From Candidatus Baldrarchaeum yapensis (lineage in GTDB: Archaea; Asgardarchaeota; Baldrarchaeia; Baldrarchaeales; Baldrarchaeaceae), in assembly GCA_016840465.1 (NCBI GenBank), contig JAEOSH010000020.1:1-30560 (forward strand): a stretch of 30,560 bases of DNA. The letters are read 5' to 3'. The translations under genes and the position numbers were made by a program. A model generated the notes under the pieces. It did not search any database and was not told the origin of the DNA. It saw only the letters and a program-made list of their open reading frames with translations. Below, in pieces: positions 250-19,880 of this stretch (its first letter is position 1; each line of letters begins with the position of its first letter).

Positions 250-879
250 ATGAAACTGATGACGAAGTATTTGCTCTCAAGATACGGCGGGAAAGTTGCG
301 ACCAAAACCGAACTCATCGCACTCTGTAACAGGTTTAACGTGAATCCGAATTACTTTGTGAACTACATCATTAGGTACGGTTACGCGATTAGAATATTAA
401 GAGGCCTGTACTACGTTAAAACCGTAGAAGAGTTCAAGCTTGGGAGAATTGTCAACCCTCTAAGAGTTTTGGCCTTGGGAATGGAGAGGCTTGGCGTTAA
501 ATGGTACTTCGGTCTCTATACAGCACTTAGACTTAATGGAGTTACTCATGAATACTATGACGTGATTTTCGTATTAAGCAACTCCATCTACAGGCCCAAA
601 ATCATCAAAGTTGCGGGAGAAAATGTAAAATTCATCAAGATAAATCCAAGTTTGGTGGTATTCGGTCTCGTGCGAAAAGATGAAATTGTATGCTCAGATC
701 TCGAGAAAACAGTCCTTGACTTTATATACCTCTCAAGGTACGGCTCCCTTTCCAGAGATAGCGCGATAGCGGTGCTTAGGGAATACGCAGATATGTTAAA
801 TAGAGGAAAACTTGACGAATACGTCAGCCACTACCCTAAGACTGTAAGGAGAGTACTGGTGGATGAAGGAATACTCTGA
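250..879 (+). CDS. abiEi: Type IV toxin-antitoxin antitoxin, AbiEi family (N-terminal wHTH transcriptional regulator)
   Basis: 209 aa. YFGLYTALRLNG and SDLEKTVLD segments match the AbiEi/COG5340 pattern. Overlaps the downstream AbiEii-like gene by 17 nt. Confidence 0.8.
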   Translation: MKLMTKYLLSRYGGKVATKTELIALCNRFNVNPNYFVNYIIRYGYAIRILRGLYYVKTVEEFKLGRIVNPLRVLALGMERLGVKWYFGLYTALRLNGVTHEYYDVIFVLSNSIYRPKIIKVAGENVKFIKINPSLVVFGLVRKDEIVCSDLEKTVLDFIYLSRYGSLSRDSAIAVLREYADMLNRGKLDEYVSHYPKTVRRVLVDEGIL

Positions 880-1789
880 GTTCGTTCGGTTCGTAATAGA
901 AAAGACGGGGATCAAAAAGCCATTGCTTATCGAGAAAGACATATTATTACATGCATTACTCCATAGGCTGATCAAAAACCGCGAATTCGGAGAAAATTAC
1001 GTGTTCAAGGGAGGATCGTGCCTAGTAAAATGCTACTTCGGCTATTACAGATTTAGTGTTGACCTCGATTTCACCTACTTACGTCAAGAAAGGTGGGAAA
1101 ACCTGACAAAATCCGAAAGAAGGAGAGAACTTGTTTCGGAAGCCGAGTACTTATCTTCACTAATTAAGAACGCATCAAGAGACCTCGGGCTCGAGTTCAT
1201 AGCGGACCTCAGAAATAATAGATTTGTCGAGTTCAGCAGTGGATCTAGGCTCATCACATATAAACTCTACCACCGAGGTGAACTTCTTAAAATTCAGGTG
1301 AACTTGGTCGAGACGTTACTATTTAAACCACAAAGACGTGAAGTTAATCACCTTCTCAGGGATATTAACATAACAGACGAAGAGAGAGCCTATTTTAAGG
1401 AATTTCTAGAGGAATATTGCGAGTTCGAAGTGTTAGCCTATGACTTGAGAGAAATACTTTGCGAAAAGGTAAGAGCGATACTTACTAGAAGAGTACAGAA
1501 GTTAAGAGACCTCTACGACCTTTATATGCTCGAGAAGAGGGGGCTAAGAATCGAGGACTACGAGAAGGAAATAGCACGTAAGCTCAGGCCGGCGCTAAGG
1601 TACAGGAGATATAGAGAGGCCTTTGAGAGAAACAAAAAGGAATTCAGAATCCCTCCAGAGCTAGTAGCGGATAACTATGAGTCTTCACTATTCGTGAAAC
1701 GGCCAAACATGGAGGAGTTCGGAGGTTTCTTGGCTCAGATAAGCAAAAAGTTAAGAAAGTTAATAAATGAAATCAATTTTTTTAGATAA
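863..1789 (+). CDS. abiEii: Type IV toxin-antitoxin toxin, AbiEii/AbiGii nucleotidyltransferase
   Basis: 308 aa. Motifs EKD, FKGGSCL..CY..YYRFSVDLDF, EK.RA and RDLYD are characteristic of the AbiEii family. Paired with the upstream antitoxin. Confidence 0.87.
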   Translation: MKEYSEFVRFVIEKTGIKKPLLIEKDILLHALLHRLIKNREFGENYVFKGGSCLVKCYFGYYRFSVDLDFTYLRQERWENLTKSERRRELVSEAEYLSSLIKNASRDLGLEFIADLRNNRFVEFSSGSRLITYKLYHRGELLKIQVNLVETLLFKPQRREVNHLLRDINITDEERAYFKEFLEEYCEFEVLAYDLREILCEKVRAILTRRVQKLRDLYDLYMLEKRGLRIEDYEKEIARKLRPALRYRRYREAFERNKKEFRIPPELVADNYESSLFVKRPNMEEFGGFLAQISKKLRKLINEINFFR

Positions 1790-4957: not shown

Positions 4958-6061
4958 TCACCTTATGTATTTTTGAGGCAGGCTCTTGATTATCTCTTCC
5001 GCCTCCCTAACTATGCGCTCTATAAGTTCCTTGACCGTCGGGAGGTCATCTATATTGCCTGAAACTTCTCCGGCAAGTATAGGCCCCGCTTCGGGGTCTC
5101 CGCCTACGTAGGACGCTTCCCACTTCTTGGGATCGTTCTTGAACCTTATGAACTCCGGATCCGTCTCCCTCCTTCCCTCCTCCAACATCTTAAGAACCTG
5201 TTTCGCGAAGGTGTTTTTAAGCACTCTAACAGGCCCGAAGACTCCGGGAATCACGACAGTATCTCTTTCAGAGGCCCTCAGAATAGCCATCTTGTATCCT
5301 TCGGAGAAGTCGCTCTCCTTTGTCGCAATAAACCTTGTCCCCATATATATGCCGTCGGCGCCCATAGCAAGTGCGGCAGCTAATCCACGCCCGTCGCACC
5401 ACCCACCAGCGGAGAGCACGGGAACTTCTCCCTTTGTGAGTTTTACTATCGCTGGAACGAGGACACTTGTATGAACCGGGTCGTATGCGACATGACCACC
5501 CGCTTCGTGGCCTGAGGCCACCAGTCCATCCACACCTGCATCAAGAGCCTTCTTCGCATGATATACTGAGGGCACTACATGAAAAACTATGAGCCCGGCG
5601 TCCTTTAGTTTCTTAGTGAACCTCCTGGGGTCACCAGCGGACGTGAATATAACTTTAAGTTGTCTTCTGGCCTTATCGTTTGTTTCCAATTCCTCGATTA
5701 TCATGTCGATCAGATAAGGTGCGTCAACCTCCTCCCTCGCGACCCGCACATTTATTCCTATCGGCTTATCCGTGAGTTCGAGCACCTTTCGCAATTCCGA
5801 GATGGGATCCCTTATGTGGGTTTCTAGGCCCTCAACATCTATGTCCGGCAACATCCCTGTCGCCTTTGCAACCTCGTAGAGTTGGGGCGCTTTTTCCTTC
5901 AATATTTTGCCCACTCCCGAGTGGCTTATTACGCCCAGCCCTCCCGCATTGGAGACGGCGGCGCACAGCTTAGTGGTTACAAATGGTCCCATTGGCGCCT
6001 GCACTATCGGATACTTTATCCCGAAAAGATCACAGATGCGGGTCCATATCATTCCCATCAC
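4958..6061 (-). CDS. Nitronate monooxygenase / FabK-like FMN-dependent oxidoreductase
   Basis: Motifs IKYPIVQAPM, AVSNAGGLG, GHEAGGH, AGGWCDGRGLAAALAMGADGIYMGTRF and AGEVSGNI. The start could be 6058 or 6052. Confidence 0.87.
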   Translation of the reverse strand: MMGMIWTRICDLFGIKYPIVQAPMGPFVTTKLCAAVSNAGGLGVISHSGVGKILKEKAPQLYEVAKATGMLPDIDVEGLETHIRDPISELRKVLELTDKPIGINVRVAREEVDAPYLIDMIIEELETNDKARRQLKVIFTSAGDPRRFTKKLKDAGLIVFHVVPSVYHAKKALDAGVDGLVASGHEAGGHVAYDPVHTSVLVPAIVKLTKGEVPVLSAGGWCDGRGLAAALAMGADGIYMGTRFIATKESDFSEGYKMAILRASERDTVVIPGVFGPVRVLKNTFAKQVLKMLEEGRRETDPEFIRFKNDPKKWEASYVGGDPEAGPILAGEVSGNIDDLPTVKELIERIVREAEEIIKSLPQKYIR

Positions 6062-6214: not shown

Positions 6215-7519
6215 TCAAGATTTACCTGCTGGGAAGATGGAGCCGTATTTTGCTATATTCTCTCTCAATTCCGTGAAAGGCGGTATGCAGAATCCCTCGG
6301 ATATTGCTCGAGCCCTGAGTTTGCTTATAAGCGCGGGCCAATCTATCGCGACCGCACATATCTCCCTACATGATCCGCATTGAAGGCAGAAGAATAGACC
6401 ATTTCTAACCGCAGCTTCAATGCCTTCGCTAAACGCGGAGTGCACAATTCCCCAGGCGACCGGGTACTTCTTCCATCCGAAGTACCAACAAAGGTTTCCA
6501 TAGACTGGGCAACTCAGAAGGCAGTTTCCGCAGTGAATGCAGTAAAGGGCCTCTTCAAACCCCTCATTTAGCATCTTCCACCTCCCGTTATCGATAAACA
6601 GTACATGCACTTTCCGTGGTCCGTGAACTCCAACCGCCCTGACTCCCTGTAGGTCTGCGGACCAACTTGGTCCTCGTATCATGGAAACGTAGGTTGCGAG
6701 TACCCTCTCGGGAAGGACAAACTTGCTCAGGGCGTAAACTATTGTTAGGGAATCCTGTAGGGTGGGCGCCACCTTTTCTATCCCCGCGACGATCAAGTGC
6801 CTCTCGGGGAGATTTGTAACGTGTCTGATGTTTCCTTCATTTTCGACTATCCATACCACGCCTTCATCCGCACTTATGGAATTCGCTCCACTGATTCCGA
6901 CATCCGCCTCTATGAAATATCTTCTCAGCGAACGTCTGGCCGCCGCAAGTATGGAGTCAAATGTAGGGCGCACAGGTTCTCCTACCTCCCTTGAGAAGAC
7001 ATCCGCTATTTCCTTTAAGGGTATGTGAGCAGAGGGAGCCATGGGGTGGCTGGGCATCCACCCCTTCGGCTTCAGTAACTGCATGATCCGCTCCCCAAGG
7101 TCGGTCTCCACAACCTTAATACCCTTCTCCTCCAGCATTTCGGGGATCCCAACCTCATCGGCCGTGGTGGTCTTGGATTTTACGACAAGCCTTGCATCCC
7201 CAACGACTTCCTCAGCGTACTTCCTAGCCTCGTCGGCGGTCCTAGCAATAAACACTTCGAAGCCGGCGTTTTCTAGAGATTTTATTGCTCTTTCCAAGTA
7301 TTTGTCCAAGTCAGCTATCGTCCTAACTCTTATCCCCCTCACCTTCTCCCTTAGGCGTCTTGCCTCATCACCAACCATCCACGCTAGGTAGCTTCTCCTC
7401 ACAACTTCCGATGCCATTTGCACCGCGGGTCTGTTCAACCTTATTGCGGGGTCGCGCTCTACGCGTTCCAAGAGTTCTTTGAGTTTTTCGTATAACTGTG
7501 ATGAAGACCGATGCGTCAA
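6215..7519 (-). CDS. LUD-domain / LutB(LldF)-like protein with two [4Fe-4S] motifs
   Basis: Motifs VVKSK, VVETDLGE, ADVGISGAN, ENEGN, VAGIEK, GPS..AD, CIHCGNCLLSCP and CLQCGSCREIC. TTG start preceded by GGAGG. Confidence 0.85.
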   Translation of the reverse strand: MTHRSSSQLYEKLKELLERVERDPAIRLNRPAVQMASEVVRRSYLAWMVGDEARRLREKVRGIRVRTIADLDKYLERAIKSLENAGFEVFIARTADEARKYAEEVVGDARLVVKSKTTTADEVGIPEMLEEKGIKVVETDLGERIMQLLKPKGWMPSHPMAPSAHIPLKEIADVFSREVGEPVRPTFDSILAAARRSLRRYFIEADVGISGANSISADEGVVWIVENEGNIRHVTNLPERHLIVAGIEKVAPTLQDSLTIVYALSKFVLPERVLATYVSMIRGPSWSADLQGVRAVGVHGPRKVHVLFIDNGRWKMLNEGFEEALYCIHCGNCLLSCPVYGNLCWYFGWKKYPVAWGIVHSAFSEGIEAAVRNGLFFCLQCGSCREICAVAIDWPALISKLRARAISEGFCIPPFTELRENIAKYGSIFPAGKS

Positions 7520-7520
7520 G

Positions 7521-8258
7521 TTATTCCTCCCCCAACTCCATTATTCCAAGCGCCGCACATACCACTTGCGATATATCATATACCTTTATTTCATGCTCAA
7601 ACGCGGCAAACGAGATGCTATGGTAGCATGTCGGGCATGCAACGATTATCGCATCGGCCTTTGCGTTCTTCGCCCTAGTGCATATCTGATTACTGATCTT
7701 ATCCGCAAGCGCGGGAAATGATATCCTTATTGGACCGCCGCAACACCATGCGAACTCTCGGGTGTAGCCCTCAATCTCTATAACATTAAGCCCTGGTATT
7801 TGGTTCAGTATGTTACGGGGTGCGTCATAAATCTGAAGATGTCTGCCCAAGTGACATGGATCATGATACCAGCACCTTAATGGCACTTCCTTGGAGAATT
7901 TCACCTTTTTCCGTATAAGCAGATCCGAAATTAGTTCGGTGAGATGAATGGCATTAATTGTCCATTCCTCCACGTACTTTTTGTAATCTTGCCTAAATGT
8001 TTTCGCACACATGGGGCAGGGGGTTATGATCTCCTTAATTCCTGCCTCTGTAAACCTTCTACTGTTGTCTGATGCAACTCTCTTGAAATCCTCGAGAAAC
8101 CCTGTCATCAGCAGTGGCCCCCCGCAGCAAGTCTCATCCTTCAAGCGCTCAAACTCCACTCCAAGTTTTTCTAACAGTTTAATGGTTGCATCTGCAAGTT
8201 CATGATACCTTTGCCTCTCCATACATCCTAGGAATAATAACCTCCCCTCACTGGTCAC
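7521..8258 (-). CDS. Cysteine-rich CCG-domain Fe-S protein (LutA/GlpC/HdrB-D-like)
   Basis: Two CCG repeats: FLGC...ETCCG...PCPMC and YHDPCHLGR...CCGG...ACPTC. The GTG start overlaps the iorB stop by 4 nt. Confidence 0.87.
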   Translation of the reverse strand: MTSEGRLLFLGCMERQRYHELADATIKLLEKLGVEFERLKDETCCGGPLLMTGFLEDFKRVASDNSRRFTEAGIKEIITPCPMCAKTFRQDYKKYVEEWTINAIHLTELISDLLIRKKVKFSKEVPLRCWYHDPCHLGRHLQIYDAPRNILNQIPGLNVIEIEGYTREFAWCCGGPIRISFPALADKISNQICTRAKNAKADAIIVACPTCYHSISFAAFEHEIKVYDISQVVCAALGIMELGEE

Positions 8259-8881
8259 ACTTCTCCCTCCATGAGTTTCATACCGATTCTGATAGCCCTA
8301 ATGTTGTCCTCAGAGAAGCCCATTTCTCTGAGCGTCACCTCAATATCCTCAAAGGAAAGGGGCATCACCCCAAGGGCAAGGGCCACTCCCAGCATTATCA
8401 TGTTCACCTTCGTCAAATCCCCGAACTCGCGTTCCGAAACCGCGCTCGCGTTCACGACTCTGACGTTCGGAGTTATCTTCTTTAGCAAGTTCGCGATAGT
8501 ATCGGTGGGAGGCATCTTCAGTCCGAAGGAACGCGCCCTCGTGGGGAGTATTTGATAGTCGTTTATGAGGACATAGCTTTTACTCGAAATGTATTCTGAA
8601 ACTCTCAGCGCCTCATTACTCTCGAGGCACATCACCATGTCCGCATCCCCCATTGGTATGATGGGTGATAGCGTGCATCTCCGCGGGTCGAACTTCTCAT
8701 CATCTTCCAAAATCACGTATCTAACTGCACTATCGACTGGGCCCTCCCTCTGCGATGCCCCTCTGGTCTCAGTACCCACAACTATGTACCCTTTCCTGAG
8801 ACCGGCTCTTTTCAGAAGGCGTCCTACTGTTATTACTCCCTGTCCTCCCACTCCCGCCACGAGGATGTTGTACTTCTTCAT
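8255..8881 (-). CDS. iorB: Indolepyruvate:ferredoxin oxidoreductase beta subunit
   Basis: Motifs ILVAGVGGQG, ET.GASQREG.V, AD....LE.NEALR and NMIMLG. Lies directly after iorA. Confidence 0.9.
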   Translation of the reverse strand: MKKYNILVAGVGGQGVITVGRLLKRAGLRKGYIVVGTETRGASQREGPVDSAVRYVILEDDEKFDPRRCTLSPIIPMGDADMVMCLESNEALRVSEYISSKSYVLINDYQILPTRARSFGLKMPPTDTIANLLKKITPNVRVVNASAVSEREFGDLTKVNMIMLGVALALGVMPLSFEDIEVTLREMGFSEDNIRAIRIGMKLMEGEV

Positions 8882-8884
8882 GGA

Positions 8885-10834
8885 TCACACCCCCAGCAAG
8901 TGAGGATTTACTATTGTCTTTCTTATCGCAGGTCCTCCGCTCTTACAAATTTGCCTACATACATCGCAATGTGTACACCTTGCGGTCTCGATGTATAGGA
9001 TCTCCTCACCGTCAATGATTGATTTCTTGATCGCTGGACATCCAAAGTTCTTGTAGCATTCCTCACACATCTGGCAACGTTCGGGCTCTAATATATAATA
9101 TGCTGCAATACCTCTCTTCTGAAGTTCTAATCTTCGTGGTTTTTCTCGTCTTTCGGCCTGTAATGCGCATTCTCTCCTTGCAATTAAAACTCTGACCCCC
9201 TCGTGTTCGAGTGCCTCACTTATTGCTTCCATGGCCGACCTGACGTTGTAAGGGTCAAATACTTTCACAAACCTGACACCACAGGCCCTCACAATTTCCT
9301 CAAGCTTCACGGCTGGGGAGGTGGGCTCATGAGTGCTGCTAATTCCTGTAGCTGGTGTTGGTTGATGTCCGGTCATCGCAACCCAGCGGTTATCGAGAAT
9401 TACGAGAATCAAGTTCGCGTTGTTGTACACTGCGTTTATTAATCCGGGAATTCCGGCATGCAGGAATGTGGAATCGCCTATAAACGCTATTATTGGCTTA
9501 TCCTTAATGATATGGCTAATTCCTGCAGCTATGCTTAATCCGGCTCCCATGCAGATCACAAAGTCTGTCATGTTAAACGGCGGAAGAGCTGCTAGCGTGT
9601 AGCATCCGATATCGCCGCCAAATATTGCGTTATCTCCGACCACCTTCTTTATTGCATAGAGGGTTGCTCTATGCGGGCAGCCCGGACAGAATATTGGGTC
9701 CCTAGGTATATACTTCGACTTTACCTCAGTTGCCAACTTCCTAATTTCATCGTAGTTCTTCTTTGGCTTTACTCCTAAAACTTTAGACAGACCCTGAACC
9801 ACCAGGTCGACGTTCAACTCGCCATAGGCGGGAAAATATTCCTTACCGACAATTTCTACGTCAAGCCCAAGTTCGAATGCTATTCTTTTAACATCAGATT
9901 CTATGAACCCTTCCAACTCCTCAACAACTATTATCCTCTCGAGGTTCTCGGAAAACCTTTTGATGAGCCCTCTCGGTATCGGGTGAACAATCCCCAATTT
10001 AAGCACCGGCAGATCGTAGAGTCCCAGCGAGTCAAGTGCCTCCATTACGTAATTGAACGCGCCACCTGCCGTTATAATTCCCGTGGAACTCCCACCCTCA
10101 AAAACCCTATTTAGATCGGATTTTTCAGCGTATTCCTCAGCCTTTCTAAATCTATCTAATAGCCTCTTTTTATTCGATAGTGCCACAAAGCCCGCGTTAA
10201 CATACTTGAATTGGGATCTGACGAATCTCTTCCCTTCTCTCGGTGGGTTTATCGGACCGTAGGTAACCTCGCCCAATCCATGAAGTGTGCGCATATTTGC
10301 GTCGAGAATTACCGGGAGATCCAACTTCTCCGACATCTCAAATGCGGCAATGGTGAAATCTTTGCACTCCTGAGGATTTGATGGCTGAACCAAGGGGCAG
10401 TGCGCATGTAACGCATAATACCGGTTATCCTGCTCGTTCTGAGAACTGTAACATCCAGGGTCGGATCCATGTGCTATAACAAGTGCGCCTGGATTCGGGC
10501 CGGAATAGCAAATTGTAAAGAAGGCATCCGCCGCTACGTTCAGTCCCACATGTTTCATTGCGACTAAGGCCCTCGCGCCCGTCCATGCTGCACCTACTGC
10601 TGTCTCTATGGCAACAATTTCATTTGTCGAGTATTCAAAATACAATCCGCTAATTTTTCTGCATATATGGGAAAATATGTCACCTATTTCTGACGCAGGT
10701 GTGCCGGGATATGTCGTGACGAAAGACACTCCCGCCTCTATCGCGCCCCTCACGATGGCCTCATTTCCAGAAAGGATTACTTTCTTCCCCGGCTCGTCCA
10801 CAAGTATTTCCTCAATGAACTCCTCCATGCTCAT
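8885..10834 (-). CDS. iorA: Indolepyruvate:ferredoxin oxidoreductase alpha subunit
   Basis: Motifs SGNEAIVRGA, YPGTPASE, STNEIVA, MKHVGLNVAAD, SSQNEQDNR, FCPGCPHR, GDIGCY and the TPP motif IGDSTFLHAG. C-terminal 2x[4Fe-4S] ferredoxin domain. Confidence 0.95.
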   Translation of the reverse strand: MSMEEFIEEILVDEPGKKVILSGNEAIVRGAIEAGVSFVTTYPGTPASEIGDIFSHICRKISGLYFEYSTNEIVAIETAVGAAWTGARALVAMKHVGLNVAADAFFTICYSGPNPGALVIAHGSDPGCYSSQNEQDNRYYALHAHCPLVQPSNPQECKDFTIAAFEMSEKLDLPVILDANMRTLHGLGEVTYGPINPPREGKRFVRSQFKYVNAGFVALSNKKRLLDRFRKAEEYAEKSDLNRVFEGGSSTGIITAGGAFNYVMEALDSLGLYDLPVLKLGIVHPIPRGLIKRFSENLERIIVVEELEGFIESDVKRIAFELGLDVEIVGKEYFPAYGELNVDLVVQGLSKVLGVKPKKNYDEIRKLATEVKSKYIPRDPIFCPGCPHRATLYAIKKVVGDNAIFGGDIGCYTLAALPPFNMTDFVICMGAGLSIAAGISHIIKDKPIIAFIGDSTFLHAGIPGLINAVYNNANLILVILDNRWVAMTGHQPTPATGISSTHEPTSPAVKLEEIVRACGVRFVKVFDPYNVRSAMEAISEALEHEGVRVLIARRECALQAERREKPRRLELQKRGIAAYYILEPERCQMCEECYKNFGCPAIKKSIIDGEEILYIETARCTHCDVCRQICKSGGPAIRKTIVNPHLLGV

Positions 10835-10852
10835 ATCGACACCCTCGAAAAT

Positions 10853-11713
10853 TTAAACCTCGGTTATCACCTTTCTCAGGAGGTCTTCACATCCAGCTCC
10901 ATCGATTATACATCCCGACATCCCGATCTTTTTAAATTCGGAGATCATCGCCGATATTTGGCTCAAATTTGCCTCATCTGCTCTTCCACTTTTTAGTTCT
11001 TCCAGAAACTCCGGTGGTGGGGTGAAACCGGGATACCGGCGGCTTAAGCTTTCCGCGTGTTCGATCGAGGGTACCAGACACACTGTGGAGAATACGGCAA
11101 GTCCTTGGCTTTTTGCAAACTCTGCTATTCTCTTTATCGAATTGATGTTAAGCGATGGCATAAGTTGTATGAAGTCCGCGCCCACCTCCCTAAATTTCTT
11201 TATCGAATGGAGTAAAGGTTCTAGATTTTCGTTGTTGGGATTAACCCTCAGACCAACGAATAATTTGCCATCAAAGTCTACCACTTGTCCAAATATATCC
11301 CTTTTCCCCCTCTCCAAAGTTTTCATTATTCTTACGAGTTCCGTAACGTCAACGTCGGAAACCACAGATGCGCCAGCATCAAACTCCTCCTGAAAGAATG
11401 TTCCAGTGCTCACAACTACTGATCGTATTCCGACATTTATAAGTGTGAGAACCTCGGACATCACTGCGCTCTTGTTCTTTTTCTTGCACTCAAGTTGATA
11501 GAGTATCTCGATAGGAGTCCTCTGTAGGAGAATAACGCTCGAGGCGAGTGGGTCGATGGATGACGGCGTTATTTTGGAAAATGTCAAAGCGTCAAATTTG
11601 TCATCTAAACCCTTCAAAGAATTCCAGATGTCGTCGAGTTCCTTTAGCGTTCTGGGAACCCTTATCCCGATCACAATTGCCATCTTTTTCGAAATCACAT
11701 CAGCTAGACCCAT
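10853..11713 (-). CDS. Divergent methylenetetrahydrofolate reductase (MetF)-fold protein, catalytic residues apparently lost
   Basis: Residual MetF patterns: CKKKN (for CRDRN), GIRSVVVSTG, VGLRVNP, GADFIQ and YPGFTPP. Follows a metV gene in the metV-metF order. Confidence 0.72.
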   Translation of the reverse strand: MGLADVISKKMAIVIGIRVPRTLKELDDIWNSLKGLDDKFDALTFSKITPSSIDPLASSVILLQRTPIEILYQLECKKKNKSAVMSEVLTLINVGIRSVVVSTGTFFQEEFDAGASVVSDVDVTELVRIMKTLERGKRDIFGQVVDFDGKLFVGLRVNPNNENLEPLLHSIKKFREVGADFIQLMPSLNINSIKRIAEFAKSQGLAVFSTVCLVPSIEHAESLSRRYPGFTPPPEFLEELKSGRADEANLSQISAMISEFKKIGMSGCIIDGAGCEDLLRKVITEV

Positions 11714-11716
11714 ACT

Positions 11717-12355
11717 TCACTCCTCCTTCACCTTTAACGACAATGCCCCATGATACCGCCGAGATTCCCGATACCTCAGCGCAAGGTCCAATAGTCCGAG
11801 AGACTTGGCCCTATCTAGTATCAGATACCAGACACATTCCCTACCCGGAAGAAGCGTGCACTTTCCGTCAACCACATATTCACATGGGCCGTTCACTGAC
11901 ATTACCGGGCAGATCGCTATGGGGCAGATCCCCACTGTTTCATATAGCATACAATCGCCACAGAACTTACACAACTCATGATATACTCCAATTCTCTCCA
12001 CCTGGCCTGAGAAGAGAGTATTAAGAGCGGGTATCACAATCTTACCTGTTAAAGCGGCTACCGTCTGGACACCAACGCCGCAGGCAAATACAAGGATCGC
12101 ATCGGATTCTTCTACTGCTTTCCTCACCAATCGGAGATCCGCCCTCAATGTTCTCATGTCGCAGGGAGTTTCTGCGACTATAGATCCGGTTATTTTCTTT
12201 TTTCCTGAAAACTTTTTGTAGAATTCCTTTATTTGCTCCTCACCACCTGTTCTGCACACTGCAGCGCACGAGTTACATCCAAGGAGAAATATCTTCTCAT
12301 ACGGCTCGATCATTTTCTCTATCTCGTCAAGAGGTTTCATTTTTGTGATTATCAC
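11717..12355 (-). CDS. metV: MetV-like Fe-S protein (MTHFR C-terminal-domain family)
   Basis: Motifs MIIT.MKP.DEI, GCNSCAAVCRTGG, ACGVGVQ, PALNT, C.FCGDC.L..T.GICP...C....NGPC and GKC...RECVW. Confidence 0.85.
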   Translation of the reverse strand: MIITKMKPLDEIEKMIEPYEKIFLLGCNSCAAVCRTGGEEQIKEFYKKFSGKKKITGSIVAETPCDMRTLRADLRLVRKAVEESDAILVFACGVGVQTVAALTGKIVIPALNTLFSGQVERIGVYHELCKFCGDCMLYETVGICPIAICPVMSVNGPCEYVVDGKCTLLPGRECVWYLILDRAKSLGLLDLALRYRESRRYHGALSLKVKEE

Positions 12356-12475
12356 CCGAACATCCCCTCTTGCGGTTCTTTATGCGTCAAAATAGTGTAT
12401 GATAATGTTTTAATTTAAGACTTTTGTGAGAATATATATCGATTCCATAGATCTCTAAGTTTCCGTGCCAATGTA

Positions 12476-12515
12476 CCATTTTCGTTTTCCTTCAAGAGAT
12501 ATGTTGCGAAAATGG
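12476..12515. promoter_or_regulatory. Perfect 9-bp inverted repeat in the divergent promoter region (candidate operator)
   Basis: CCATTTTCG-N22-CGAAAATGG, centred in the 261-nt gap between metV and the amino acid dehydrogenase. Confidence 0.4.
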
Positions 12516-12616
12516 AATTTTTGGTATCGTATTGAAAATTACCTCGAATCCTGAGAATTTATGATATCGAATAATTGATATTTCCACCGTCTGTAGTAGA
12601 CATGGGGTGAAAACTC

Positions 12617-13789
12617 ATGGAAGGAATAAAATTGGACGAAATAGGACCCGAATTGGTACTTCACGTGTACGATCCGCCCACTGGTATGAGAGGTGTAGTG
12701 GTAATCGACACCACCGTTTATGGTTCGGCTGCTGGCGGCATAAGGATGCTTCCAGACATAACAACATCGGAGATTGTAGATCTTGCTAGGGTGATGACGT
12801 ATAAGTTCGCAATTTTCAACTTGCCAGTGGGAGGGGCAAAAGGGGGCATCTGGGCAGAGCCTCATATAAGGAACCGCGATGAGATACTGATCGCGTATGG
12901 GCGAGCGATTGCTCCATTACTGAGATCTGGAATTTACATACCGGGCGCTGACATGGGAACTAGTGATAAGGATGTGCAACTGATTTGTGATGCCGCGGGA
13001 GCGGAGGAAGTCAAGCCTAGAGGATTAGGCCTTAAAATAAAGGAGGGAATGCCTCTTGAAGATCACCTGACCGGGTATGGCGTGGTTACCGCCTGTAAGA
13101 TTGCTTGCGAGTTTGCTGGAATAGATCTCAATGGGGCTACGGTTGCCATAGAGGGTTTTGGCAAGGTTGGAGGTGGTGTTGCTAGGTACATGGCACGCGC
13201 AGGTGCAAAGGTGGTGGCAATCTCCACGATAAAGGGCGCAATTTACAACCCCAATGGGATCGACGTGGAGGAACTTCTCGAGATGAGAAAAAGATACGGG
13301 GATGATGTCGTTCTGGCGTATAAGGATGCCAAAAGGCTGGAGAAGGAGGAACTCTTCTCGCTTCCCGTTGACATACTCGTCCCGGGTGCTCGACCTTATG
13401 TGATAAACAGAAGTAACGTCGATAAAATAGGGGCGAAGATAGTGTGCCCTGGTGCGAACATTCCAGTCACGGATGAGGCCGAGGAGATCCTTTTACGAAG
13501 AGGTATAATATCAGTGCCTGATTTTATAGCAAATGGCGGCGGCATCATAGCAGGTGTTGTCGATAGACTGGGAGGAGACGAGAAACAGGCATTCAGCATG
13601 ATAGAAAGCCTTATTGGTTCCCTCACACGACGGGTTTTGTCCGAGGCCATGGATAAGGGGATCCCTCCGAGAACCATAGCAGTCGAAATCGCGCGGCAGA
13701 GGGTTTTAGAAGCCATGAGGAAAAGAGAGCGAAAATCGCTAGAAGAATTGCGAAAAGCGGTGAAGGAAAGCCTTGGTGTTCGGGATTAG
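12617..13789 (+). CDS. Glu/Leu/Phe/Val (ELFV) amino acid dehydrogenase, probably not glutamate-specific
   Basis: Motifs GGIRM, MTYK, GGAKGG, GADMGT, TGYGV, the NAD-binding IEGFGKVG and PDFIANGGG. GGGGTGA SD. Confidence 0.9.
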   Translation: MEGIKLDEIGPELVLHVYDPPTGMRGVVVIDTTVYGSAAGGIRMLPDITTSEIVDLARVMTYKFAIFNLPVGGAKGGIWAEPHIRNRDEILIAYGRAIAPLLRSGIYIPGADMGTSDKDVQLICDAAGAEEVKPRGLGLKIKEGMPLEDHLTGYGVVTACKIACEFAGIDLNGATVAIEGFGKVGGGVARYMARAGAKVVAISTIKGAIYNPNGIDVEELLEMRKRYGDDVVLAYKDAKRLEKEELFSLPVDILVPGARPYVINRSNVDKIGAKIVCPGANIPVTDEAEEILLRRGIISVPDFIANGGGIIAGVVDRLGGDEKQAFSMIESLIGSLTRRVLSEAMDKGIPPRTIAVEIARQRVLEAMRKRERKSLEELRKAVKESLGVRD

Positions 13790-15360: not shown

Positions 15361-15498
15361 ACATAAAGATTATATTTCCTGCTGACATAATTTTTCTTTG
15401 CATCACAGGTTAGTATGGATGATGTGGTGGAATTGATAACGTTTTCTGGTCACAGGCAATCTATTGATCTTTACGGTGATGACATCTTCAAGTCGCAT

Positions 15499-16430
15499 TT
15501 GAGTGGCGTTAAGGAGCGCCCATGGGTTAAAGGGGAGCGCCCGTGGTATAAGTTCTACGAGCCCAATGCACCTCGTACGATAGATTATCCTGAGGTTCCC
15601 CTTTTCGAGATATGTGACCAGGCATCACGCAGGTTTTCGAATCATAAATGCATTATTTACCTGAAGGATGGGAGAGAGTACTTCTATGCGAATCTCGGAA
15701 AGATAAGCGATAAACTTGCTGCTGCTCTCCATAAGGATCTCGGCGTAGGGAGAGGGGAATCGGTCGCAATGATCATGTGGAATTCCCCCAGTACATTTTC
15801 AGCTGTTTTGGAATCCTTAAGACGGGGGCCTCATGCACCCCCTCATGATAAAGCACGAAAGCGTAGGGATGCCTCTTGTGGATACTGACTGTAAAGTTGT
15901 GGACCCAGAAACCGGGAGGGAAATGCCACCAGACGAGGTTGGAGAACTCTTATGGAGAGGGCCCCAGGTGATGAAGGGGTACTGGAGAGCACCCGAAATG
16001 ACTAGGGAGGTTCTGACGGAAGATGGGTGGCTTAGGTCGGGAGATTTGGGATACATGGACGAGGACGGCTTTGTTTATGTTGTCGGCAGGACAAAGGAGA
16101 TCATAAAGTAAGTACAAGGGATATAGGATTCTCCCTGACGACGTGGAGGCAAAGCTTTATGAGCATCCGGCGGTGGCGGAGTGCGCAGTTGTAGGGGTTC
16201 CGGATCCCGTAGTCGGCGAGGTCATAAAGGCATTCGTCGTTCTAAAACCCGAATACCGCGAAAAAATTTCGGAGGAAGAGTTTCTGAAGTGGGCAAGAGA
16301 GAAGCTAGGACCGTTGAAGTGCCCTAGGATCGTAGAATTCAGGAGTTATCTTCCGAAAACTCCGATTGGTAAAGTTTTCAGGAGAAAACTACGCGAAGAG
16401 GAGTTAAGAAAATTGAAAGAAAAGAAATAG
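15499..16430 (+). pseudogene. Decayed long-chain acyl-CoA synthetase (AMP-forming, FadD-like)
   Basis: N-terminal ERPWYKFY..P..IDYPEVPLFEI. A -1 frameshift in C5 (15785-89) restores NSPQYIFSCFGILKTGA. An internal deletion of roughly 250 codons at ~15830-15842 removes the TGGTTGxPKG and YGxxE motifs. A 4-nt AAGT duplication lies at 16106-16113. The C-terminal EHPAV...GKVFRR is intact. Joins track ORFs 15415, 15833 and 16143. Confidence 0.85.
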
Positions 16431-16468
16431 GGTTTTATCCAACAGATTCATATTTTTATCATCTGATA

Positions 16469-18140: not shown

Positions 18141-19880
18141 GTGTACATTTTGAAGGGGAGTCGGGGACTTCCCGACTATGTTATTAACAGAATATGGGAA
18201 CAATGCTGGTCAGAGGATGCGAAGAGGTGGATAGAGAAAATAGGGCCGCCACCTGAGGATGTCGACATCGTGGCGTACTGGGATAGAAGGATAAAGGAAG
18301 AGCTCCGAGTTCTCGACGAGGTCGCGATGGTATTCTATGGGTATAACATACAGATGACGTACCGCGAGTTTATGGAACGGAGAGATAGATTTGCGACTGC
18401 GTTGCACGAACTGGGCATTCGGAAAGGAGACAAAGTAGCGGTGTATCTTCCCAATTGCCCCCAATTTGCAATAGCCGCCTTTGGCGCATTAAGAATAGGC
18501 GCGACGATAACATGTGTGAACCCCCTCTTTGCCCCCAGAGAGGTGCAGTTCCAGCTAAGCGATAGCGAGAGCAGGGTTGTCGTTACAACGGACACTTTGT
18601 ATCCTAAGGTTAAGGCCGTTAAGGAGGATACTCCGCTTGAACATGTAATAGTCCTGAATCTAAGAGGGGAAAAACCCAAAGTCGAAAAGGAGCCCGGGGT
18701 GCTATACTTCGATGAGATGATAGAGAAAGCTTCACCCAAGCCTCCAAAGGTAGAGATAGATCCTAAGGAGGATATCGCGGTTCTCCAGTACACCGGGGGG
18801 ACCACCGGAATCCCGAAGGGGTGCATGCTCACCCACTATAATGTTCTATCTAACGCGTGGCAGATGAGACCCATTGGCGAAGTTATGAAGGAAAAACTGG
18901 GAATTGAGAGACTGAAGAGATTATGTGTCCTTCCGTGGTACCACATTTACGGGCAAACCTGTGATCTCGTCGGAGGCCTCGGGGACGGACAACTGCTCGT
19001 GATTTTCGATAGATTTGATCCGGGAAAAGTTCTGGACGCAATCCAGCAGTATAAGCCGCACATATTCTTGGTTGTCACACCAATTCTTCTGTTCCTACTG
19101 CAACACCCCAAGATAAGAGAAGTGGACTTTTCATCCCTTAAATTGGTAAACGCAGGAGCCGCACCACTGCCGGTTGAGATTGCAAAGCAGTGGAAGGAAA
19201 TAACGGGGGTCGAGGTCCAAGAAGGCTATGGACTAAGCGAGGCAAGCCCCGTAACTCACACAACCGCAAGTCCATTCTTTGCAACGAAGATAAAATTGGG
19301 ATCTGCCGGTGTGCCGCTGCCGTGGACTCTCGAAGCTATCGTCGACCCTGAAACGCTTGAGTTTCTACCCCTCGGAGAGACAGGAGAGTTGGTTGTTGCG
19401 GGACCACAGGTGATGAAAGGTTACTGGAAGAGGCCCGATGAAACAGAGAAAGTCTTCTTCGAGGCCGGGGGAATAAAGTGGCTCAGAACAGGAGATGTCG
19501 CCAAAATAGACGAGGAGGGCTTCGTGTGGATTGTTGACCGCGTCAAGGAAATAATAAAGTATAAGGGCCATTCGGTGTATCCACGGGAGGTGGAGGAGGT
19601 CCTCTATGAACACCCCGCGGTCATAGACGCGGCTGTCGTCGGTGTCCCAGACCCCGTCGCTGGGGAAAACATAAAGGCGTTCGTCGTCCTAAAGCCGGAG
19701 TACCGTGGGAAGGTCACCGAGCAGGAGATAATAGAGTGGTGTAAGGAGCGTCTCGCGGCCTACAAGTACCCCCGCATGGTCGAGTTTGTGACGTCGATAC
19801 CGCGAAGCGCTGCCGGAAAGGTCCTCCGTAGGGTCTTACGTCAAAAGGAAATAGAAAAGATGAAGAAAGAGCAAAAATGA
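18141..19880 (+). CDS. Long-chain fatty acid--CoA ligase (AMP-forming, FadD-like)
   Basis: Motifs LQYTGGTTGIPKG, EGYGLSEASP, GPQVMKGYW, WLRTGD, DRVKEIIKYKG, YKYPR and GKVLRR. Confidence 0.93.
   Translation: MYILKGSRGLPDYVINRIWEQCWSEDAKRWIEKIGPPPEDVDIVAYWDRRIKEELRVLDEVAMVFYGYNIQMTYREFMERRDRFATALHELGIRKGDKVAVYLPNCPQFAIAAFGALRIGATITCVNPLFAPREVQFQLSDSESRVVVTTDTLYPKVKAVKEDTPLEHVIVLNLRGEKPKVEKEPGVLYFDEMIEKASPKPPKVEIDPKEDIAVLQYTGGTTGIPKGCMLTHYNVLSNAWQMRPIGEVMKEKLGIERLKRLCVLPWYHIYGQTCDLVGGLGDGQLLVIFDRFDPGKVLDAIQQYKPHIFLVVTPILLFLLQHPKIREVDFSSLKLVNAGAAPLPVEIAKQWKEITGVEVQEGYGLSEASPVTHTTASPFFATKIKLGSAGVPLPWTLEAIVDPETLEFLPLGETGELVVAGPQVMKGYWKRPDETEKVFFEAGGIKWLRTGDVAKIDEEGFVWIVDRVKEIIKYKGHSVYPREVEEVLYEHPAVIDAAVVGVPDPVAGENIKAFVVLKPEYRGKVTEQEIIEWCKERLAAYKYPRMVEFVTSIPRSAAGKVLRRVLRQKEIEKMKKEQK

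Follow-up and report, generated by a model that had tools for sequence, protein, structure and literature searches.

A MetV protein and a stripped MetF-like barrel encoded with iorAB: a conserved four-gene unit joined to a LutAB-type pair in an Asgard archaeon

2-Oxoacid:ferredoxin oxidoreductases (OFORs) are central to anaerobic amino acid fermentation, including the syntrophic way of life by peptide degradation that has been suggested for Asgard archaea, and the NADH-dependent phenylglyoxylate dehydrogenase PadEFGHI illustrates how an OFOR core can carry extra redox subunits that change its electron acceptor. Here we describe a cluster of six genes (positions 6215-12355, minus strand) within a 30,560-nucleotide stretch of DNA from Candidatus Baldrarchaeum yapensis, the whole of which is called the window below. 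In this cluster the genes of an indolepyruvate-type OFOR (IOR; iorA and iorB) follow those of a MetV protein and of a MetF-like protein, designated MetF*, and precede those of a CCG-domain protein and a LUD-Fer4 protein. The closest described systems each share a part of this content. Firstly, classical IorAB of Thermococcales and methanogens (TIGR03336/TIGR03334) has the same IorA domain order (POR_N, TPP_enzyme_C and a C-terminal 2x[4Fe-4S] domain), with the IOR_alpha cut-off passed and a POR gamma-type domain in IorB; the window unit differs in adding a conserved MetV and a relic of the methylene-tetrahydrofolate reductase (MTHFR) fold, and in an IorB that scores under the equivalog cut-offs. 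Secondly, MetV, an Fe-S protein of ~24 kDa, binds Zn and is predicted to carry two [4Fe-4S] clusters, and MetVF-type enzymes draw electrons from reduced ferredoxin, having lost the use of NADH (PMC9430772). As in the MetVF-type MTHFR of acetogens, the window metV encodes all invariant Cys and directly precedes an MTHFR-fold gene, but MetF* lacks the equivalents of Asp120, Gln183 and Glu28, and in bacteria the corresponding protein is shortened. The partner genes in the window are iorAB, in place of the hdrABC-mvhD of the Hdr-linked form (MetVF-HdrABC-MvhD) or of rnfC2; domain searches found no HdrA or MvhD domain in the window cluster, its only Hdr-like element being the CCG protein. IOR did appear among the inconsistent contaminants identified by mass spectrometry in a Sporomusa ovata MetVF preparation (PMC9430772), which may be coincidence and is treated here as a curiosity, not as evidence.

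Thirdly, the luo operon for lactate utilisation in Desulfovibrio vulgaris encodes a pyruvate:ferredoxin oxidoreductase (PFOR, DVU3025) and LldG/LldH (DVU3032-3033), which are co-transcribed and co-migrate on native gels, such that a 'lactate-oxidising supermolecular structure' has been proposed (PMC4481167). Both loci encode a 2-oxoacid:ferredoxin oxidoreductase together with a 2-hydroxyacid dehydrogenase of LUD/Fer4/CCG type. The window, however, has an IOR-type enzyme in place of PFOR, LldH divided between two proteins (CCG and LUD-Fer4), no LldG/LutC (in the genome), pta/ack or permease genes, and MetV/MetF* added. The LutABC/LldEFG systems of B. subtilis and Shewanella share the pair of a LutA-like protein (two CCG domains) followed by a LutB-like protein (LUD plus 2x[4Fe-4S]), but LutC/LldG is missing from the window cluster and genome, and the window LutB scores 286 bits against a cut-off of 444.8. 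PadEFGHI, finally, shares the concept of appended subunits, those of the window belonging to unrelated families with no evident NAD(P)-binding module. A literature search found no description of metV adjoining iorAB. An earlier note on this DNA, made from the sequence alone, knew of no characterised operon combining the MetVF, IorAB and LutA/B-type proteins: the MetV/MetF* part is without a precedent that we could find, whereas OFOR combined with LUD/CCG is already characterised in luo (PMC4481167).

The metV-metF*-iorA-iorB unit

The six genes run in the order metV, metF*, iorA, iorB, CCG and LUD-Fer4, with intergenic gaps of 3, 18, 3, -4 and 1 nt. A GGAGG-like motif lies 6-14 nt 5' of all six starts, including the GTG starts of the MetV and CCG genes and the TTG start of the LUD gene, which fits internal initiation on a polycistronic mRNA. 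Order, positions and gaps as given by the earlier note agree exactly with the open reading frame (ORF) listing, and its labels (MetV, MetF-like, IorA, IorB, CCG and LUD) are those returned by Pfam and NCBIfam domains. The locus is not an assembly chimera, because four separate assemblies (ENA ERZ27248328, Logan SRR7051321, Logan SRR7051323 and JGI 3300022470) carry it in identical form. The genome itself comprises 2.27 Mb in 100 contigs, is 96% complete and is the sole member of its own family among species representatives.

The first gene, metV (11717..12355, minus strand), has a GAGGGG motif upstream of its GTG start and encodes a 212-aa Fe-S/Zn protein of the MetV family (PF12225/DUF5981, 83 bits). 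Compared with 22 bacterial and 8 archaeal MetV proteins, it has 13 of the 13 family-invariant Cys, and MetV keeps every one of these in all iorAB-linked systems. The second gene, metF* (10853..11713, minus strand), encodes a 286-aa MTHFR-fold protein without the residues of folate chemistry. It scores 30.4 bits against PF02219 (cut-off 24), compared with 135.9 bits for the canonical MetF of the same genome, which is encoded in a canonical metV-metF pair elsewhere (contig C1:19111-20753) and is 26% identical to MetF*. An exhaustive search of 1.8 billion representative proteins yielded a best non-self relative of 28% identity, and a word-indexed homology search matched only MetF* itself. Because a PDB sequence search with MetF* and MetV gave nothing relevant at E <= 1, the MTHFR identity among PDB structures came from fold comparison only: the AlphaFold model is a complete (beta-alpha)8 barrel with eight strands (mean predicted local distance difference test score, pLDDT, 91.8), and the top 50 Foldseek matches in the PDB are all MTHFR, with template-modelling (TM) scores of up to 0.78 at 14-16% identity.

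At the positions of the catalytic and folate residues (E. coli Glu28, Asp120 and Gln183, in an alignment anchored to solved MTHFRs), the genome's canonical MetF has Glu, Asp and Gln, and MetF* has Ile, Thr and Met. All Ior-linked MetF-like proteins are without Asp120 and Gln183, the window protein additionally being without Glu28: the ALTGD motif that holds Asp120 reads STGT in the window, AAGA, STGI or SIGT in a second Asgard family (f13), and ASGN or similar in bacteria, and the TQ of strand 6 (Gln183) has become LM, TL or TT. The change of His88 to Gln was ruled out as a loss in MetF*, as canonical archaeal MetF also has Gln there. As regards a bound flavin, some family motifs are retained (NP after strand 5, KK in helix 5, and GAD), with Thr-Asp after strand 2 replaced by Ser-Lys. 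In bacteria the counterpart of MetF* is a relic of 170-229 aa with a weak match to MTHFR positions ~60-180, few remaining family motifs (NKNR, KPVYDLD, GAD) and a predicted partial barrel of seven strands and five helices (pLDDT 88.8) that resembles MTHFR and the barrels of phosphoenolpyruvate mutase and isocitrate lyase at a TM of ~0.6. Pfam gave no match for three of the five bacterial relics scanned, and NCBIfam holds no model for MetV or for the relic. Judged by these residues, MetF* is an MTHFR-fold barrel stripped of what folate or NADH chemistry would need; it is most likely a scaffold or structural partner of MetV, or else may be a flavin site that serves a different acceptor. To call it 'flavin-bearing', as had been done previously, goes beyond what can be established for a protein that has lost Asp120, Gln183 and Glu28 and whose bacterial counterparts measure ~170 residues.

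The third gene, iorA (8885..10834, minus strand), encodes a 649-aa IOR alpha subunit with POR_N, TPP_enzyme_C (88.5 bits) and Fer4 domains, the last forming the C-terminal 2x[4Fe-4S] domain. It passes the IOR_alpha equivalog TIGR03336 (687.6 bits, cut-off 650.9) and has intact Cys ligands for three [4Fe-4S] clusters (Cys383/386/411 and CxxCxxC...C motifs at 587-599 and 620-630). The 208-aa IOR beta subunit encoded by iorB (8255..8881, minus strand) has a POR gamma-type domain (PF01558 at 86 bits) and does not pass the IOR_beta equivalog models (107-112 bits, cut-offs 205-238). A second, ordinary iorAB, without MetV/MetF* genes, is located on contig C46 of the same genome.

Linkage of these four genes recurs well beyond the window. 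In f13, for which three genomes were compared, the genes lie on the same strand in the order iorA-iorB-metV-metF*, with identities to the window proteins by tblastn of 56-57% for IorA, 45-51% for IorB, 48-54% for MetV and 24-25% for MetF. A second metVF pair, ~5 kb from the iorAB-linked locus, is the orthologue of the canonical pair of the window genome (MetF 53-54%), and the iorAB-linked MetF of f13 is a divergent paralogue, 30-33% identical to canonical MetF. An IorA search of species-representative genomes, with retrieval by peptide patterns, gave 62 loci, of which 27 (all bacterial) have metV ~550 nt upstream of iorA, a proportion that is not a prevalence, since one retrieval pattern, CQMCEECY, is itself a signature of the linked clade. 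These bacteria belong to Spirochaetota/Leptospirales, Thermodesulfobacteriota, Deferrisomatales, Poribacteria and unclassified lineages. All four genes could be resolved at 23 of the 27 loci, in the window order (metV, MTHFR relic, iorA, iorB) and mostly with junctions of -4 or -1 nt; no neighbour beyond these four is conserved around the bacterial units. A relic-IorA fusion at two high-GC loci (L046 and L067) was considered and rejected, the Arg/Gly-rich N-termini being of the kind that arises where frames in high-GC DNA are spuriously extended upstream; a profile search found the relic at both loci as a frame of its own between metV and iorA. The four-gene unit is thus patchy but spans two domains. 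Since the canonical metVF sits elsewhere in the genome, the MetV/MetF* pair is not for C1 metabolism, and metV-metF*-iorAB is a conserved unit unrelated to it. The pairing of MetV and a MetF-like protein with IorAB, proposed from the window alone, is hereby upheld by 27 bacterial loci, a second Asgard family and agreeing trees, and the expected synteny was found in distant genomes for the four-gene part, the full six-gene order having been found in the window lineage only.

Two f13 loci have features of their own. At one (G015) iorB and iorA are separated by 4.3 kb of inserted DNA (L016:11740-16057), which carries a 439-aa ORF with LAGLIDADG-like and helix-turn-helix domains and three ORFs without Pfam matches, and which is probably a mobile element splitting the operon. 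At the other (G025, locus L015; 1316-5229 and 15599-17179) the flanking genes encode an M24 peptidase, two PmbA/TldD peptidases, an AsnC-type regulator and a luciferase-like oxidoreductase, and an ADP-forming acyl-CoA synthetase gene lies divergent from iorA; this is a context of peptide conversion to arylacetate and ATP.

The phylogenies of IorA and MetV follow the linkage. An IorA tree built from 64 rows places the bacterial linked proteins in a single clade (31 rows; Shimodaira-Hasegawa-like approximate likelihood ratio test, SH-aLRT, 100) with metV present in 27 of the 27 that have enough flank. Their sister group (support 90) comprises the window and f13 proteins, all linked, and a seven-row clade of Jordarchaeales and a probable Freyarchaeia genome with no metV beside iorAB. 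Other IorA clades, including the second iorAB of the window genome on C46, are unlinked. In the MetV tree one clade (97/92*) unites the linked copies of the window and f13 to the exclusion of the Asgard canonical copies, and the bacterial linked copies make up a separate clade (98/95*); placing every linked MetV in one clade is not rejected by the approximately unbiased test (p-AU 0.42, in a tree set without bacterial canonical MetV). Residues specific to linked IorA include Trp425 and, within the first of the Cys motifs of the ferredoxin-like domain, Gln588 and Tyr594; this specificity is partly circular, as CQMCEECY was used in retrieval. The residues are compatible with docking of MetV at the ferredoxin-like domain, and the alignment contains no clade-specific insertion in linked IorA.

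Association of the proteins was addressed by complex prediction on a bacterial trio from locus L049 (MetV, relic and IorA residues 6-637; 22-row alignment each), with IorA as the scored partner. The complex score was 0.40 (runs of 0.45, 0.40 and 0.37), compared with 0.00 for the best of three controls; the runs share at least 93% of contacts, and partner pLDDT is 87 or above. Among 80 solved complexes 58 attain the score mark, and among 110 mismatched pairs 2 do so, although passing scores of 0.60 or less belong to only seven of the 80 solved complexes and to both passing mismatches. The verdict is one of weak support, and, given the strong prior from gene order, the prediction lends modest support to binding.

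The CCG and LUD-Fer4 pair

Behind iorB lie the genes of a LutA/LldE-type protein of 245 aa (7521..8258, minus strand), whose start overlaps the iorB stop by 4 nt, and of a LutB/LldF-type protein of 434 aa (6215..7519, minus strand). The former has two CCG domains (PF02754, 119.6 bits in two stretches), with intact CCG motifs at residues 44 and 172, and has model matches to TfrB and to LdhH, the latter over its C-terminal half. The LUD-Fer4 protein combines a LUD domain (PF02589, 138.8 bits) with two intact CxxCxxCxxxC motifs; it scores 286.3 bits against the LutB/LldF model TIGR00273, under the cut-off of 444.8, and its best non-self homologue is 46% identical, with hundreds of split and fused forms at ~40%. 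Compared with the model NF045670 of the quinone L-lactate dehydrogenase LdhH/LdhL (cut-off 800), in which LUD, Fer4 and CCG are fused in one large subunit, the pair is split in two genes scoring 274 and 126 bits. An alternative gene caller chose later starts for both (CCG 233 aa, LUD 400 aa); the 245-aa start of the CCG protein retains the conserved N-terminal Cys12 of the domain.

A whole-genome search with PF02589 found three LutB-type genes in the window genome (in the window, on C100 and on C83) and no LutC-type gene in this 96%-complete assembly. The C100 copy is a stand-alone CCG-LUD pair, and the C83 copy is fused and adjoins genes for a CoA-transferase and a major facilitator superfamily (MFS) transporter. 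In other Asgard and Archaeoglobi genomes CCG-LUD likewise occurs as a stand-alone two-gene cassette in varied contexts, among them a Helarchaeota copy that adjoins a D-lactate dehydrogenase of GlcD/GlcF type. A tblastn search with the window CCG protein found at least 15 more paralogues with CCG domains, spread over the window genome.

One other locus joins such a pair to iorAB. It belongs to an uncultured archaeon whose very small genome (G044) measures 0.8 Mb, and comprises seven closely spaced genes on a single strand (L066:9986-16546) in the order iorA, 102-aa ORF, HD-domain gene, iorB, LUD-Fer4, 376-aa membrane protein and CCG; the membrane protein has a weak SfLAP match and, from its place between LUD and CCG, could be an anchor. 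As the L066 IorA lies in a different, MetV-free clade, the association of iorAB with CCG/LUD arose independently there. All six genes together were found only in the window lineage. The cluster is accordingly a composite of a conserved four-gene unit and a mobile LutA/LutB-type cassette without LutC: the single six-gene unit originally described holds as a tight cluster in the window lineage and not as a conserved whole, being made up of a four-gene module and a cassette present in three copies.

The genomic surroundings of the cluster

A divergent, AT-rich intergenic region of 261 nt (12356..12616) separates metV from an amino acid dehydrogenase gene and is a probable promoter region for both that gene and the operon; direct reading places a TTAAATTAAAA stretch ~60 nt upstream of the metV start. 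The dehydrogenase (12617..13789, plus strand; 390 aa; PF00208 and PF02812) belongs to the Glu/Leu/Phe/Val family, scores far under the cut-off of every glutamate dehydrogenase equivalog and, judging by its position, is a probable supplier of 2-oxoacids. On the other side, a gap of 153 nt with a T-rich stretch and a TATA-like AAATTATAAG box lies between the LUD gene and a gene for an NMO/FabK-like FMN protein (4958..6061, minus strand; PF03060 at 192.9 bits), which is probably a separate transcript and whose membership of the cluster is uncertain. A paralogue 72% identical to this protein (C76:24915-26009 of the window genome) is encoded ~6.5 kb from another 2-oxoacid:ferredoxin oxidoreductase gene set (C76:32543-35004). 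A scan for sigma-70 promoters and intrinsic terminators gave counts not above those of shuffles, with a bacterial model that is inapplicable to an archaeon.

The other genes of the window are catabolic, encoding acyl-CoA dehydrogenases, electron-transfer flavoprotein (ETF), SCP2 proteins, an acyl-CoA ligase and a protein resembling acetoacetate decarboxylase. At 15415-16431 (plus strand) a gene of the AMP-binding (acyl-CoA ligase) type is apparently in three consecutive fragments of 144, 92 and 95 aa in all four assemblies, and an intact paralogue of 576-579 aa is found at 18141-19880. Near the start of the window, an AbiEii-type nucleotidyltransferase toxin gene (863-1789, plus strand) overlaps a 209-aa ORF without Pfam matches (250-879), and the two (250-1789) are probably an AbiE-like toxin-antitoxin pair.

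Readings of the cluster and what they would mean

On balance we favour, with some confidence, the reading of the cluster as a composite operon oxidising 2-oxoacids to acyl-CoA, built from a four-subunit IOR core and a LutAB-type pair. IorA and IorB would provide the thiamine pyrophosphate (TPP) and CoA chemistry, acting on 2-oxoacids whose probable sources are aromatic or branched-chain amino acids, and electrons would pass from the TPP chemistry through the three IorA clusters to those of MetV, with MetV and MetF* forming an extra electron-transfer arm docked on IorA. The LutA/LutB-type proteins, inserted directly behind iorB in the window lineage, would act as a 2-hydroxyacid dehydrogenase pair, such that hydroxyacids (via CCG/LUD) and amino acids (via the neighbouring dehydrogenase) would converge on the 2-oxoacid consumed by IorAB. 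The Stickland-like branch point suggested previously would be of this kind, and the partnership of IorAB with CCG/LUD does match the proposed logic of 2-hydroxyacid to 2-oxoacid to acyl-CoA, its independent recurrence being limited to a single case. What has been shown are the structure and domains of the genes, the missing catalytic residues, a fold that is retained, the linkage and the matching trees; binding between the proteins, the route taken by the electrons, their acceptor, the direction of their flow and the substrates are what we infer.

It is worth noting that a number of observations weigh against this reading. The complex prediction passed weakly, with bacterial proteins and IorB left out; the retrieval pattern favoured the linked clade and makes its specific residues partly circular; and the relic was present in only four of 151 Spirochaetota genomes in an even sample. 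As a sister clade of Asgard IorA is without adjoining metV, MetV and MetF* appear dispensable for that enzyme type, and MetF* is an orphan on a long branch, for which relaxed selection is possible. CCG-LUD is usually a stand-alone cassette in unrelated contexts that adjoins iorAB at only one other locus, and the genome has no LutC-type gene to complete the LutAB-type pair.

The last of these points also bears on a different role for the pair, in which CCG and LUD-Fer4 are the electron exit, an HdrD/GlpC-like Fe-S module passing electrons from IorA/MetV to a thiol/disulfide, quinone or membrane partner. CCG domains are acceptor-side modules in HdrB/D, GlpC, GlcF and TfrB, models that the window CCG protein matches, the pair is translationally coupled to iorB, and the L066 locus places a membrane protein gene between LUD and CCG. 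Yet it is the proteins of lactate utilisation that have the LUD domain as their family signature, homologues of LutB/LldF/LdhH type are the closest, at ~40-46% identity, the Helarchaeota copy adjoins a D-lactate dehydrogenase of GlcD/GlcF type, and the luo precedent uses its LUD/CCG module as a lactate dehydrogenase (PMC4481167), leaving the electron exit an unlikely role.

An improbable elaboration would have all six proteins form one soluble super-complex taking 2-hydroxyacid to acyl-CoA with two pooled electron pairs, a high-potential pair from the LutAB-like module (about -190 mV) and a low-potential pair from IorAB (about -500 mV), confurcated at a repurposed flavin site of MetV/MetF* onto a mid-potential acceptor, e.g. 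NAD(P)+. Such an assembly would have an analogue in Ldh-EtfAB, although none of its parts would be the same, and the bacterial four-gene units would then be a minimal form in which IOR electrons are re-routed away from free ferredoxin.

IOR-type enzymes are reversible in principle, as is generally known of the family, and the cluster might run in the reductive direction, with reduced ferredoxin or a different donor acting through MetV to drive carboxylation of arylacetyl- or branched-chain acyl-CoA to a 2-oxoacid that is then aminated by the neighbouring dehydrogenase, so as to make amino acids. The divergently adjacent amino acid dehydrogenase gene suits this arrangement, as does MetV, through which MetVF enzymes take up electrons from ferredoxin (PMC9430772). 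Against it stand the catabolic content of the window (acyl-CoA dehydrogenases, ETF, acyl-CoA ligase and SCP2) and the f13 locus with its peptidases and an ADP-forming acyl-CoA synthetase beside iorA, and we give this direction little credence.

That three unrelated, non-interacting units should have come together by chance or for reasons of regulation might be argued from the restriction of the six genes together to the window lineage and from the mobility of the CCG-LUD cassette, with its three genomic copies. Nevertheless, metV-metF*-iorAB are linked in both domains, their phylogenies match and their reading frames overlap; a single mRNA is indicated by the ribosome-binding sites and by the overlap of iorB with the CCG gene; and L066 supplies a second, independent cluster of iorAB, LUD and CCG, all of which makes mere juxtaposition very hard to credit. 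Least credible of all is that MetV/MetF* is still a ferredoxin-dependent methylene-tetrahydrofolate reductase serving as electron sink for the reduced ferredoxin of IorAB: Pfam does recognise MTHFR (30.4 bits, cut-off 24) and DUF5981, the barrel is complete and MetVF enzymes do use reduced ferredoxin (PMC9430772), but the equivalents of Asp120, Gln183 and Glu28 are replaced, the bacterial counterparts are cut down to ~170 residues, a canonical metVF with all residues is encoded elsewhere in the window genome and in f13, and MetF* has no sequence match to a solved MTHFR at E <= 1.

What is new here are the Asgard forms with a full-length stripped barrel, the co-phylogeny of IorA and MetV, and the joining, specific to the window, of the unit to a LutAB-like cassette. 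The window version, which has both the full-length stripped barrel and the LutAB-like pair, may be an informative intermediate and is a candidate for structural work. If there is indeed a conserved IOR subtype with two further subunits taken over from the MTHFR system, the electron output of the IOR step in these organisms would not simply be free ferredoxin, and models of energy balance would change with it. 'MetF/MetV' annotations beside iorAB should then not be counted as Wood-Ljungdahl genes when the metabolism of Asgard and bacterial metagenome-assembled genomes is reconstructed. More broadly, MetV would emerge as an adaptor for electron transfer that is portable between enzymes, and the barrel of MTHFR as a fold that could degenerate into its non-catalytic partner.

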